Of a DNA stretch of 41,575 nucleotides, positions 8,806 to 22,527 are shown one piece after another. The position numbers and the translations under genes were made by a program. The DNA lies in contig JAZDKQ010000018.1 of assembly GCA_043802865.1 (NCBI GenBank), positions 1 through 41,575 of the forward strand, given 5' to 3'. Below the pieces are notes generated by a model. That model made no database searches. It saw only the letters and a program-made list of their open reading frames with translations, and was not told where the DNA came from. The stretch comes from Candidatus Moraniibacteriota bacterium (GTDB lineage: Bacteria > Patescibacteriota > Minisyncoccia > Moranbacterales > UBA11712). The first letter of the stretch is position 1, and each line of letters opens with the position of its first letter.

Positions 8806-10392
8806 TTAAGGGCTTGTTTCAACCCATCCGCAAGATCCCTCTCCTTTCGCGCTACCTGAAGCATTACTACCTCCGCAGAGCCCGCCCTTGCAAGTCCAGG
8901 TGTAATCACCGTATTTACCGGGATCTGGATCCCTAATTATCGTACCATATATTTCACATAGCTGATTATTTGCTGGCCATCCATTACAGAAAACGGAACC
9001 ATTGCCTGGACCGACTTTCGCATCGAATATTGGCCCCATCGATGCCTCACATTGTGAAGAAGCCGCTCCAGCACATTGTCCATTACATTTCCAATACCAT
9101 TTTTTATCAGTGCCATTGTAGGTAATAGGAGTATTTCCCCAGGGCGTATCGCAGGGAGCGGTGATTTGTGACTGATTACAATATGTAGCACCATCTCTTC
9201 CGCTCGGACCGCATTGGCCAGAAATATCGTCTTTTTTTGTGGTCGTACAGCCGAAATAAGTAGCTCCTCCGTTTGGACTGGGACAATCCCACATCCATGT
9301 ACCCCTTGGATTCACGGGAATCACACTATAAGTGCACACAGGACCAGAAAAATCGGTACTGCAGAGAATTTGTCCAACTTGCCCGGCACATCCTCCCGGG
9401 CAAGGTCCACAATCACCCGGGCAAGAGAGACAATTTTCGCTTCCGTTACATGCTCCGTCTCCACAATAGGCTGGTGGTGGTGGTGGACAACAGCTAACGC
9501 TATAGCCGGTATCTACGCAACCTAAGTCCCAACCATGATCAATGTCAGTACAGCATTGGATTATATTACATCCTGAACACCATGAAGAGTAGCACGATGA
9601 GGTGCAAGCCGGCACTATAATCGCTCCGAGAGGATTTTTGCTATACGCCAAACCCAAATTAGATTTGATATCAGTCTTAAATTTAGCTAAATCCCAATCC
9701 GCAGAAGAAGCATTATTGCCCGGATAAGCTATTTTCCAATCATTTATTGAAAGATTTCCAGCTATTTCGCTGGTCTTTTTTAATACCTCTTTGGCCTTGT
9801 CAAACTCTCCCAAGGCATTATAACTCACACCTAAACCATTCAAAAGCCATGGATTATCTGGTTCTACCACTAGTCCTTTCTCTAACGTATCTTTCGCGTT
9901 TTCGTAATCATTATCCTTGTAATATGCCCAGGCCAGATCATTATATCCCGCCCATTCTTTCGGGAACATTTCGATGAATTTTTTAAAATCAATGATAGCT
10001 CCTTTGTAATTTTTGGAGTAGCCGTCAATCAAGCCTTTGATATAATATGATCGCGTTCCTTGGGAATTCAGGCTAATAGCTTTGTCTATTTCTAGGGTAG
10101 CTTCTTCCAGCTTATTTTGAACAAAATAAACCCTGGCCAACTGATAATACGCCGCCGATAAATTGTGATCCGCAAAAATAGCAGCTTTGTACCACTTGGC
10201 CGCTTTTTCAAGATCATAGCTTCCTCCGCTGTTGAAATAGGAATTTCCCTTGGCCAGCAGCCGTTGAGAAACCGCTCCTTTGACCGGAGTCAAATAAAAA
10301 ATTCCTGCCAATATCAAAATAGAAGCGAAAATATAATATTTTGTGCCTATTTTTTTACAAAATAATTTTGATTTTGTTTTTTTGCTTTTCAC
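8806..10392 (-). CDS. Membrane-anchored TPR protein with a large Cys-rich C-terminal region
   Basis: N-terminal TM; TPRs (AYYQLARVY, YYIKG, GYNDLAWAY, LNGLGVSY); about 31 Cys in the last ~265 aa including CGDGACNGSENCLSCPGDC; ends GWVETSP. Confidence 0.8.
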   Translation of the reverse strand: MKSKKTKSKLFCKKIGTKYYIFASILILAGIFYLTPVKGAVSQRLLAKGNSYFNSGGSYDLEKAAKWYKAAIFADHNLSAAYYQLARVYFVQNKLEEATLEIDKAISLNSQGTRSYYIKGLIDGYSKNYKGAIIDFKKFIEMFPKEWAGYNDLAWAYYKDNDYENAKDTLEKGLVVEPDNPWLLNGLGVSYNALGEFDKAKEVLKKTSEIAGNLSINDWKIAYPGNNASSADWDLAKFKTDIKSNLGLAYSKNPLGAIIVPACTSSCYSSWCSGCNIIQCCTDIDHGWDLGCVDTGYSVSCCPPPPPAYCGDGACNGSENCLSCPGDCGPCPGGCAGQVGQILCSTDFSGPVCTYSVIPVNPRGTWMWDCPSPNGGATYFGCTTTKKDDISGQCGPSGRDGATYCNQSQITAPCDTPWGNTPITYNGTDKKWYWKCNGQCAGAASSQCEASMGPIFDAKVGPGNGSVFCNGWPANNQLCEIYGTIIRDPDPGKYGDYTWTCKGGLCGGSNASGSAKGEGSCGWVETSP

Positions 10393-10442
10393 TTCTTTTT
10401 ATTTAATGCTGAAATTTGGTAAATTATTTTTGACTTCCATCT

Positions 10443-11639
10443 TTACGGCAATTTTGGAAATGGCGTATTAAGCCTCTCCTCTGTCCATCCCAATTCTTTC
10501 ATAACCGCTTTAAACCTAGGATTTTTCTGGGAAAGCAATGCTGTTCCCATAGTTACTAGCTCATTATTGTTTGTGCCTGGCATAGCGTTTAATTTCTTCA
10601 TGTACAGAAAGAAGGGTTTGGTTCTATTTTTATTATATCGCTCCACAAGTTGATCAGTAAGTTTGATTATATCGTCAATTCGCTCGTCACCATAGACTTC
10701 CGCCAGAAAACATGCATACCAATAAGTTATAAAACCCTCTTCTTGATCTGGTAATGCCCTCCCACTGTTGAATATGACTACAGATTCTTTATACTTCCTT
10801 TCCGCTTCCCCCGCAAAGTCTTTGGAAACCTGACCTAGTAAATAAAGCTCGGTTTGTCTACTTGCCTGCATAAGCAAAATCTTTCCCTTATTGAAAATAT
10901 TGAGATACGGAAAAGGATATTTTGAGGTAACAGCATCACCAGCGGCAATTTTTTCTTTGGCATCTTCGAGATATTGAGCCCGCTTCGCATCGTTTAAATT
11001 GTGAGAAGACTTATCTTCGATAAGACGTGCTAAATCGAAAGCGGCAATACGATAAGAGCAAAGAGGAAGCGGATATAGATCGAATGAGGCGTTACAAACA
11101 TTCTTTATGGTTCCAACTTCAGGATACTCTTTGTCTTTCAGGGGCTTAAAATAATCATCGCTCCAGATAGATACTAGGTAGTCATCGTCCACGACATCGC
11201 GAAATGAATTCGCCATATAATCATAGGCCACCGATCTCCATAATTTTGAATATTTTTCATTCTTCGCAACCTCTCTTATTAAATCGATTCCCTGGACAAC
11301 ACTCTGGCTGTTCGCGTACCTATATATAAATATTCTAGCTAGTAATAATTTTCCTTGCGCCTCTTCTGCTGCAGAGCTGGGAGCATGAGTTATTTCCCTC
11401 ACCTCCCGCTCCATCTCTCGAACCTTGTCAATATTTTTCTCATTGTCAATATTTTTCTCCAACTCGAAAAGTCTGTCAGAATATAACTGTGATTCAGATG
11501 CTGCCGATTTATTATTTTTAACGCTACCATCAAGCTCGCCTTTGGGAGCAACCATTTTGAAAATAATTCCAATTATTATCATTAAAAAAAGCGCGACAAC
11601 CAATACTAGTATGATTTTTTTGCTTTTTTCCATAATCAT
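10443..11639 (-). CDS. Membrane-anchored, probably all-helical hypothetical protein
   Basis: 398-aa ORF with N-terminal TM and helical/TPR-like composition; no recognised catalytic motif. Confidence 0.65.
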   Translation of the reverse strand: MIMEKSKKIILVLVVALFLMIIIGIIFKMVAPKGELDGSVKNNKSAASESQLYSDRLFELEKNIDNEKNIDKVREMEREVREITHAPSSAAEEAQGKLLLARIFIYRYANSQSVVQGIDLIREVAKNEKYSKLWRSVAYDYMANSFRDVVDDDYLVSIWSDDYFKPLKDKEYPEVGTIKNVCNASFDLYPLPLCSYRIAAFDLARLIEDKSSHNLNDAKRAQYLEDAKEKIAAGDAVTSKYPFPYLNIFNKGKILLMQASRQTELYLLGQVSKDFAGEAERKYKESVVIFNSGRALPDQEEGFITYWYACFLAEVYGDERIDDIIKLTDQLVERYNKNRTKPFFLYMKKLNAMPGTNNNELVTMGTALLSQKNPRFKAVMKELGWTEERLNTPFPKLP

Positions 11640-21707: not shown

Positions 21708-21762
21708 CTGATATTTTTTTCCGAACTTTTAACGGATTATTTCTGCGACAATCTAAGTACAT

Positions 21763-22527
21763 TCAAAAAAAATTATTATCTTTATCTGACTTTTTCAAGA
21801 TCGCTTCGATAGGTATTATATCTTGTTTATGCGTTAACTTCATATTTCTGTAAAATTTATCGATAATCCTTATTTTTTTACCGATATTATAAACTAATTC
21901 TATATTTTCCAAAGAATTTGATTCGCTTTTTTTGTTAACAGGACTTTCGTGCGCACTAAGTATCCAATTAAATCTATAGCCGTGCGGCGTTTGAGTGTTA
22001 TGCACTCTCTTTGTATTGAAAGGATATTTATTGACAATATAATTATCCTCGACCTTCACTATAACATTTAATATTCCTGAACTTAGAACAGCAGCTCCGT
22101 ATTTAGCAGCCTCCCTGATTACAGAATTAATCATTTCGACTGTCAATAGAGGTCTTGCTCCATCATGAAATATAACATAGTCACATTTTATTTTATTTTT
22201 CTTAATAAACTTCAGTGCATTATATGAAGAATCCCTTCTCGTTTTTCCACCAACGATTATATCGATATTTTTTTTATCGTAATTTTTGTGAATAATTTTT
22301 TGGGCATAGGCATACTTTTCTTTGGGAATGACCACTATAATACGCCTTATCAGACCGCACTTAACAAATTTATCAATAGAATGAAAAATAATGGGCTTAC
22401 CATTAATAACCAGAAATTGTTTATAGATTCTTCCCATCCTTTCTCCTCTGCCACCTGCTAATATTACAGCAATGTTATCCACTCTTTTTTTTGTTGTTTT
22501 ATTTTTCATATTAATTCCATATTTCAA
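21763..22527 (-). CDS. IspD/TarI-family cytidylyltransferase
   Basis: ILAGGRGERMG, KQF, GGKTRRDS, HDGARP, QTPHGY, NMKLT. Confidence 0.88.
   Translation of the reverse strand: MKYGINMKNKTTKKRVDNIAVILAGGRGERMGRIYKQFLVINGKPIIFHSIDKFVKCGLIRRIIVVIPKEKYAYAQKIIHKNYDKKNIDIIVGGKTRRDSSYNALKFIKKNKIKCDYVIFHDGARPLLTVEMINSVIREAAKYGAAVLSSGILNVIVKVEDNYIVNKYPFNTKRVHNTQTPHGYRFNWILSAHESPVNKKSESNSLENIELVYNIGKKIRIIDKFYRNMKLTHKQDIIPIEAILKKSDKDNNFF

Follow-up and report, generated by a model that had tools for sequence, protein, structure and literature searches.

This analysis concerns a gene island in a 41,575-nucleotide stretch of DNA (the window) from a Candidatus Moraniibacteriota bacterium (contig JAZDKQ010000018.1, forward strand). 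Eleven of its genes lie between nrdR and ftsZ in three blocks: a candidate precursor peptide and three membrane-anchored helical-repeat proteins on the minus strand (block 1), a YcaO cyclodehydratase, a bicupin and a SagB-type dehydrogenase on the plus strand (block 2), and a radical S-adenosylmethionine protein (rSAM), a transferase fusion, an ASST-family propeller and a cytidylyltransferase on the minus strand (block 3). With moderate confidence we read the core of the island as a lineage-specific variant of the linear azole peptide (LAP; thiazole/oxazole-modified microcin, TOMM) systems, with facultative companions that handle sugar or polyol phosphates. Comparison with related loci supports a single recurrent system in candidate-phyla genomes that comprises blocks 1 and 2, namely the precursor, the C39-like/tetratricopeptide repeat (TPR) protein, the helical protein, the TPR protein, YcaO and SagB, as a preliminary description of this DNA had proposed within a larger set of eleven genes. 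Block 3 appears to be a facultative companion of that system, neither obligatory nor random.

The YcaO and SagB core and its relatives

The YcaO gene (13388–14869, plus strand, 493 aa) matches PF02624 with 153.7 bits against a cut-off of 25.7. The SagB-type FMN dehydrogenase (15790–16536, 248 aa), located on the same strand 920 bases past the YcaO stop with the cupin gene between them, matches TIGR03605 with 130.6 bits against a cut-off of 78.4. A PHPF-type C-terminus marks azoline-forming YcaOs; the window protein ends in HPFP, and all 12 aligned relatives end in PHPF plus one residue. The intervening gene (14906–15763, plus strand; Cupin_2 47.6 bits) encodes a bicupin resembling the type II phosphomannose-isomerase (PMI) cupins, with 23.2 bits for MannoseP_isomer against a cut-off of 23.6. 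Its nearest Atlas clusters are of PMI type (scores 0.96–0.97), some of them fused to cytidylyltransferases, and are taken as leads only; none of the other fetched loci holds a homologue of this cupin.

A YcaO scan of species-representative genomes yielded 10 loci and genome searches added more, with record titles that include Candidatus Giovannonibacteria and Kaiserbacteria. At E ≤ 1e-40 the YcaO clade counts about 140 members. Genes in the compared loci were called as the longest open reading frames (ORFs) and homology was assigned by BLASTP at E ≤ 1e-4 to 1e-6, thresholds that distant members may escape. SagB adjoins YcaO in nine of the first ten loci, the tenth being cut by a contig end. 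In viral contigs the YcaO alignment produced 27 pattern matches, none of them a relative.

Phylogenetic analysis of YcaO placed the window protein in a clade with those of L002, L003, L004, L016 and L127 (clade A, support 100/99). A second clade contains the loci with an M16 peptidase (support 98/94), and a third group is formed by L129/L130 and L132/L133/L151/L153. In the M16 clade a soluble peptide of 57–72 residues with a Cys-rich core precedes YcaO in the classical layout, and because these relatives carry classical Cys-rich soluble precursors, the YcaO/SagB clade probably acts on Cys-rich peptides. One M16-clade locus also encodes a free-standing 236-aa protein beside YcaO (L005:9168–9878), with Cys/His stretches that resemble C39 active-site motifs by eye. 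Directly after SagB, a PRTase/beta-propeller gene is found in L002, L003, L004 and L016, the last of these from genome G036. A family of 440–580 residues with no Pfam match recurs near YcaO loci as well and is absent from the window; we take its Gly/Ser/Thr-rich motif to recall PaaK/CapK-type adenylating enzymes.

Candidate precursor, leader and membrane-anchored partners

Divergent from YcaO and 190 bases away lies a 73-aa ORF (12976–13197, minus strand), the candidate precursor; the intergenic region between the two operons (13198–13387) has a promoter-like plus-strand site at 13320–13348, by consensus match only. Its translation shows a Lys-rich N-terminus, one hydrophobic helix, a spacer, AKAD at residues 60–63 and a 10-residue tail (SPDLPIGCSY) with one Gly-Cys site and two Ser. 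L002 has a homologue at the equivalent position, and a leader-bearing protein is encoded at all six of the closest loci. The shared leader consists of Met, a few residues, Lys-Lys, a hydrophobic helix, about 25 residues and [A/V]-x-A-D, the latter beginning at residues 48–64 in 14 of 14 collected leaders. Past this junction the segments are rich in Gly, Ser, Asp and Cys and contain Gly-Cys sites; L002, L003, L009, L128 and L131 encode small peptides that combine the leader with a Gly/Ser/Cys core, and a homologous leader precedes a Gly/Ser/Cys-rich core in L016 too.

The genome of the window comprises 683 kb in 43 contigs and is 89.7% complete. Among its 5200 ORFs, a profile built from the 14 leaders (the training sequences match by construction) has the 73-aa ORF as its sole match (E 3.7e-17; next 0.13), and the single new match among the loci is L134. 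Since the profile matches one ORF of 5200, the leader is not a general secretion signal of the organism. The N-terminal membrane anchor would fit a cell-attached stage of the peptide, which the preliminary description had already envisaged.

The leader also heads larger proteins (272–500 aa) at other loci. One of them, the 272-aa protein of G036 (L016:16939–17757), has the leader, a run of Cys alternating with acidic residues and Ser, and a Hint domain (PF05203, 40.9 bits), the self-cleavage of which could release or ligate a modified segment. Leader proteins of 291–500 residues with a Pfam-unmatched domain are encoded in L004, L132–L134 and L150–L153; members 327–500 residues long (such as L133:7393–8805 and L004:7847–8830) carry the leader with its A-x-A-D junction, then the conserved domain, another hydrophobic stretch and patches rich in Gly/Cys, and the family is present in genomes with and without YcaO. 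Cys counts past A-x-A-D seemed higher in YcaO-positive than in YcaO-less loci, an impression from seven proteins.

These larger proteins, together with the very short window tail, favor an explanation in which the 73-aa ORF is a small membrane protein such as an anchor or immunity factor, and YcaO and SagB modify a larger protein instead, either the Cys-rich TPR ectodomain of block 1 or a product encoded elsewhere. There is precedent for YcaO enzymes acting on proteins, as in the thioamidation of McrA. That function also appears in the accessible part of PMC12153355. We nevertheless consider this explanation highly unlikely: the leader profile has no second match in the genome, TfuA has no match in the 683 kb, small leader-bearing peptides with Gly/Ser/Cys cores recur at the five loci named above, and the Cys-rich tail is missing from most homologues of the membrane-anchored TPR (TM-TPR) protein.

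That protein (8806–10392, minus strand, 528 aa) matches TPR families over residues 60–211 and ends in a Cys-rich ectodomain. Its homologues occur in 13 of 16 YcaO loci outside the M16 clade. Apart from its last residues the Cys-rich tail is poorly conserved and, being common only to the window and L002 among the homologues compared, it is an unlikely universal substrate, which weakens the case for the Cys-rich protein, one of the candidates named in the preliminary description. The many Cys in the tail argue, by inference, for outward-facing proteins. The tails of the window protein and its L002 counterpart (L002:1970–3577) end alike, with Cys-Gly-Trp, a hydrophobic residue, Glu-Thr, one residue and Pro, and this shared end may be a sorting or processing signal.

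The second partner (10443–11639, minus strand, 398 aa) is a membrane-anchored all-helical repeat protein with homologues in L003 (E 4e-9), L127–L131 and L148. It has no Pfam or NCBIfam match; its AlphaFold2 (AF2) model (pLDDT 76.5) is an alpha-solenoid, for which a fold search gave no match in the Protein Data Bank (PDB) at E ≤ 0.001 and weak ones to armadillo/TPR/NprR-type repeats.

The third partner (11723–12928, minus strand, 401 aa) is shared by the window, L002, L004, L009 and G036. Pfam gives TPR only and does not match C39, and a profile of the family against PDB sequences likewise returns TPR matches only. An AF2 model built from six homologues (pLDDT 77.9) has a C-terminal TPR part, and residues ~45–230 match in Foldseek, at E ~1e-3, the C39 peptidases LahT150 (6mpz, TM score by target 0.70), the ComA peptidase domain (5xe8, 0.73) and PCAT1 (7n87, 0.66), as well as the non-catalytic C39-like domain of HlyB (3zua, 0.66). 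The alignment of six sequences contains no invariant Cys column and an invariant His181, a likeness to the C39 peptidases. Unlike these, the domain is joined to a membrane anchor and TPRs in place of an ABC transporter, and the junction is A-x-A-D in place of a double-glycine site. The C39-like assignment of the preliminary description is thus matched in fold by the model, and the catalytic Cys is absent in the window. Because that Cys is not conserved, we read the protein as a putative leader-binding C39-like domain, not a proven protease.

The known systems closest to this core are the LAP/TOMM clusters of streptolysin S (SagBCD) and microcin B17 (McbBCD), which likewise place a YcaO, in their case of SagD type, beside a SagB-type FMN dehydrogenase and have a small precursor with a Gly/Ser/Cys core; the PHPF ending and the sister loci with classical Cys-rich precursors and an M16 peptidase extend the likeness. 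In the mechanism we propose, the 73-aa protein would be the precursor and its signal-anchor would place the tail outside the cell. YcaO with ATP would convert the Gly-Cys site of the tail, possibly a Ser too, to an azoline, and the SagB-type flavoprotein would oxidize this azoline to an azole, at Cys a thiazole ring. The three membrane-anchored alpha-solenoid proteins may bind or process the precursor around the A-x-A-D junction, and the C39-like fold in one of them, having no Cys nucleophile, would bind the leader. We infer that the signal-anchor leader and the membrane-anchored solenoids may stand in for the E1-like partner and the exporter of other systems.

Several observations weigh against an LAP variant, and some of them are also the points in which the window departs from the known clusters. 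The YcaO protein reaches 199.3 bits for TIGR03604, under the cut-off of 219.25. No E1-like (C-protein) or RRE partner and no ABC exporter are seen in the island, and TIGR03603 has no match in the 683-kb genome, in agreement with the preliminary description, which had noted no E1-like partner. The window further differs from the known clusters in its leader, which forms an N-terminal membrane anchor and has the A-x-A-D junction, and in its partners, three TPR/solenoid proteins that are all anchored in the membrane; some homologous substrates reach 270–500 residues, one of them Hint-fused. The window tail has only 10 residues and one Cys, two further Cys standing before AKAD. At the nucleophile position of the C39-like domain, placed at the start of helix 74–86 by a reading of the model and not by residue-level superposition, the window has Ser, the remaining sequences vary among Ser, Asp, Ala and Asn, and a single G036 paralogue has Cys. 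A leader protease of the system was not identified. Finally, the window system may be incomplete, because the PRTase/beta-propeller gene that follows SagB in four clade A loci is missing there.

The insertion site between nrdR and ftsZ

All eleven genes of the preliminary description were recovered at their positions and on their strands by ORF listing and family scans, and a twelfth was added. This ORF (22854–23369, minus strand, 171 aa) has a hydrophobic N-terminus, a GC content of 0.50 and no family match; a relationship to a 171-aa ORF in L004 was ruled out (E 0.27). The twelve ORFs occupy 8806–23369 within a gap of 14.8 kb between two core genes, nrdR on the left (8203–8655, minus strand; Pfam Zn_ribbon_NrdR and ATP-cone) and ftsZ on the right (23517–24722, minus strand; Tubulin and FtsZ_C families). 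GC per gene is 0.30–0.39 across 10443–22527 versus 0.444 genome-wide. The window ftsZ is 88–95% identical to that of its genus relatives, and nrdR and ftsZ are spaced by 150–350 bases in G002, G003 and G004, from the genus of the window, and in G005, from its family. Because ftsZ and nrdR are thus neighbors in four of the five close relatives examined, the stretch between them in the window is an inserted accessory island and not a chance grouping.

The exception among the five is G001, a genus relative, in which the same gap holds a different 16-kb cargo (L015, G001:C3:7000–26000) that comprises at least eight rSAM genes, an ORF with weak likeness to prepilin peptidases and a TPR protein, and has no YcaO. 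G036, from another family of the same order, has its YcaO system in the corresponding chromosomal neighborhood, in the order ftsZ, three wall-synthesis genes, an AbiEii ORF, an rSAM-like ORF, the YcaO operon, precursor, three C39-like/TPR paralogues, the TM-TPR gene, nrdR and nrdD; in G036 and the window alike the TM-TPR gene abuts nrdR. The gap behaves like a hot spot for accessory cargo. The AbiEii-family ORF at the edge of the G036 island (L016:6274–6906) belongs to the type IV toxin-antitoxin nucleotidyltransferases.

At the window island, a tRNA search found none, flanking direct repeats were not convincing, and no integrase was seen. Promoter-like sites (62 versus 47.4 in shuffles) and terminators (20 versus 12.9) are near the shuffle expectation and are hints only. 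The public record of L002 (G003:C63) is titled Bathyarchaeia archaeon, a title that looks wrong, as the genome is listed in the genus of the window; its ftsZ, nrdR and nrdD are 88–91% identical to the window counterparts.

Block 3 and its tie to the YcaO system

Block 3 converges on block 2, with the rSAM stop 8 bases from the SagB stop. The longest rSAM ORF (16545–18089, minus strand; PF04055 81.1 bits) overlaps the end of the next gene by 73 bases, and since relatives have about 450 residues, its start is likely at or below 17966 (16545–17966). The next gene (18017–20290, minus strand) fuses a Glyphos_transf domain of TagF/TarL type (GPT, residues ~8–400; PF04464 53.1 bits) to a GT2 domain (~441–700; PF00535 40.3 bits). 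It is followed by a membrane-anchored ASST-family beta-propeller (20457–21707, minus strand, 416 aa; PF14269 84.6 bits, PF05935 62.6 bits), with 2649 relatives at E ≤ 1e-10, and by an IspD/TarI-family cytidylyltransferase (21763–22527, minus strand, 254 aa; PF01128 135.1 bits). The TarI/IspD and Glyphos_transf matches score above Pfam cut-offs, but NCBIfam TarF (36 versus 550) and TarB (25 versus 500) fall far below theirs, so these genes are assigned at family level only.

The rSAM protein belongs to a distinct family, with 576 relatives at E ≤ 0.001 among 8000 candidates scored. In 14 aligned members the CxxxCxxC motif (C149, C153, C156), a C-terminal CxxCx5C (C431, C434, C440) and four N-terminal Cys are invariant; the SPASM family PF13186 does not match, and NCBIfam maturase models all score far under their cut-offs. 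Of the 80 loci kept from a metagenome scan with the rSAM alignment, four (L029–L032) are true members, the rest showing generic rSAM motifs. Only L030 provides context: its member stands among at least six rSAM genes and a GT28 gene, which recalls, as does the G001 cargo, the multi-rSAM islands of candidate-phyla bacteria. The window differs from these islands in having a single rSAM, of this 450-aa family with its N-terminal four-Cys domain. In alignments, this N-terminal region pairs with Cys motifs at the C-terminus of shorter rSAMs from L015 and L030, which resembles a permutation of the domain order.

Recurrence of block 3 is uneven, and much of the evidence counts against a tie to YcaO. 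Homologues of the cupin, rSAM, GPT-GT2, ASST and TarI genes are absent from the first 10 YcaO loci, and the four block 3 genes have no close homologues in the five other closest YcaO loci or anywhere in the YcaO-positive genomes G003 and G036. Among 60 relatives, ASST and GPT-GT2 occur in none and TarI-like genes in 11 (neither G003 nor G036), and the rSAM query finds only core-level matches of 23–32% identity in 10. The preliminary description had treated the three blocks as one unit, which does not hold since they occur independently.

This pattern suits an explanation in which the hot spot received two unrelated cargoes, an azole peptide cluster (blocks 1 and 2) and a set of genes that varies a wall teichoic acid-like polymer (block 3), brought together because a tiny genome has few variable regions in which envelope and accessory genes can accumulate. 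The different cargo of G001 at the same site, rich in rSAM genes, agrees with it, as do the large surface proteins with LamG, PA14 and PKD domains that neighbor other YcaO loci. Elsewhere in the genome one Glyco_tran_WecG (TagA/WecG-type) gene and three LytR_cpsA_psr (LCP) genes score above cut-offs, and because of this TagA/WecG enzyme and the three LCP ligases, a role of block 3 in a normal wall polymer is conceivable. One of the LCP genes lies in the window at 30595–31071, 7 kb beyond the island. In L133 and L134 the GPT gene sits in a typical glycan cluster with GT2, TarI, SDR and DegT aminotransferase genes. We regard two unrelated cargoes as possible but clearly less probable than a facultative companion, given the evidence from wider samples.

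A sample of 400 class genomes has the N-terminal GPT domain in 10 and YcaO in nine at E ≤ 1e-30, with two weaker cases in fetched loci. If the two were independent, about 0.3 genomes with both would be expected (11 × 10 / 400), but in five (G496, G549, G602, G609 and G773) no more than 10 kb separates the two; the related genomes sampled are not independent, and G496 and G549 are of one genus. Three further genomes (G621, G758, G654) have no YcaO and hold GPT beside a leader-bearing protein, a TM-TPR gene or a helical gene, so that eight of ten GPT loci include some component of the YcaO system; those of G641 and G521 include none. Five of the ten GPT-positive genomes have no YcaO at all. The claim of the preliminary description that polyol-phosphate transfer belongs to the system therefore stands in part, for the transferase recurs beside more distant YcaOs and also occurs in genomes that have none. 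GPT homologues (36–49% identity) are encoded near YcaO in L133, L134 and L130 and fused forms in L151 and L153; TarI homologues adjoin the GPT gene in L133, L134 and L148. These GPT neighbors fall at two or more separate places on the YcaO tree.

Further links came from hit lists of a search of 5.8 billion proteins, compared by exact contig size and source. YcaO and rSAM relatives share equal-size metagenome contigs of 36,972 and 12,838 bases, YcaO and ASST relatives one of 24,798 bases, and rSAM and ASST relatives two of 11,286 and 34,410 bases. Against these five pairs, about 0.15 would be expected from near-misses; as a point on the other side, same-contig membership is deduced from equal size and not from seen DNA. 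RNA library X1 has contigs, 95–97% alike, that cover YcaO, run across its junction with the cupin gene and also cover GPT-GT2. They show that a close relative shares this junction and GPT-GT2; DNA may be present in the library, so they do not prove transcription, and island parts with no cover carry no evidence. The view taken after the first 10 loci and the 60 relatives, that block 3 is unrelated, was overturned by the class-level samples and the hit-list pairs, and the sugar-type cupin inside the YcaO operon and the 8 bases between the rSAM and SagB stops also speak against two unrelated cargoes.

At the opposite extreme, all eleven genes could form one obligatory pathway to a single surface product that undergoes heterocyclization, carbon modification by the rSAM, addition of a polyol-phosphate or sugar, and sulfation. 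The low GC content of all blocks, their arrival in one gap, the tight convergent packing, the recurrence of block 3 parts with YcaO relatives and the membrane anchor of the leader-bearing protein are consistent with it. However, the full set is found in no other compared locus. ASST occurs in one of the 400 class genomes, alone (G707), and never beside YcaO in fetched DNA, so its inclusion in the system by the preliminary description is not borne out. The strict rSAM family is likewise absent from all other fetched YcaO loci, and at E ≤ 1e-50 the rSAM query matches none of 400 genomes in the phylum sample. The predicted location of ASST is outside the membrane, but no anchor is present in the TagF-like enzyme, and the window tail has no acceptors beyond two Ser and one Tyr. 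We judge an obligatory pathway distinctly improbable; sulfation and phospho-glycosylation of the peptide are conjecture.

With block 3 as a facultative companion, its operon and the PMI-like cupin would synthesize an activated polyol- or sugar-phosphate or transfer it, and the target may be the same surface product or the surrounding wall polymer. The wall teichoic acid enzymes TarI and TagF/TarL share the IspD/TarI-family and Glyphos_transf domains, and TagA/WecG and LCP genes complete the likeness. Unlike those systems, the window transferase is GT2-fused and flanked by the ASST propeller and rSAM, no TarJ-type reductase is present in the island, and the transferase family is rare (10 of 400) and usually beside components of the YcaO/leader system. 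Because the same leader heads small Cys-rich peptides and large proteins, beside YcaO/SagB, the transferase or both, a broader arrangement is suggested: a modular surface system in which one A-x-A-D membrane-anchor leader carries peptides or proteins of 270–500 residues, and interchangeable modules modify them. YcaO and SagB would form azoles in Gly/Cys-rich segments, the TagF-like/GT2 transferase and the cytidylyltransferase would add polyol-phosphate or sugar, and rSAM and ASST would act in some lineages. We offer this arrangement tentatively and think it rather unlikely to hold as a whole.

A literature search found no paper describing this gene combination, subscription journals and supplementary files being outside its reach. 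In its accessible part, one survey counted YcaO clusters in candidate-phyla bacteria and read them as methanogen-enzyme thioamidation (PMC12153355), and as far as that part goes, knowledge of such clusters is limited to counts from automatic mining. The present analysis gives the family an anatomy. Its elements are a candidate precursor whose leader and junction are defined, membrane-anchored partners that would replace the E1-like protein and the ABC/C39 exporter, candidate substrates from 73-aa peptides up to Hint-domain fusions, and a measurable, facultative tie to a rare polyol-phosphate transferase. It raises the questions of how a YcaO enzyme recognizes its substrate when no E1-like partner is present and whether ribosomal peptides can be carriers of teichoic acid-type chemistry. 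Were the two cargoes unrelated, the island would hold nothing more unusual than an azole-peptide cluster with wall-polymer genes beside it. For episymbiont biology, the island points to a variable surface molecule encoded in a hot spot beside division genes; should the modular arrangement be true, this would be a peptide-anchored structure, teichoic acid-like or azole-bearing, that may serve, for example, host attachment in organisms with no lipid synthesis of their own.

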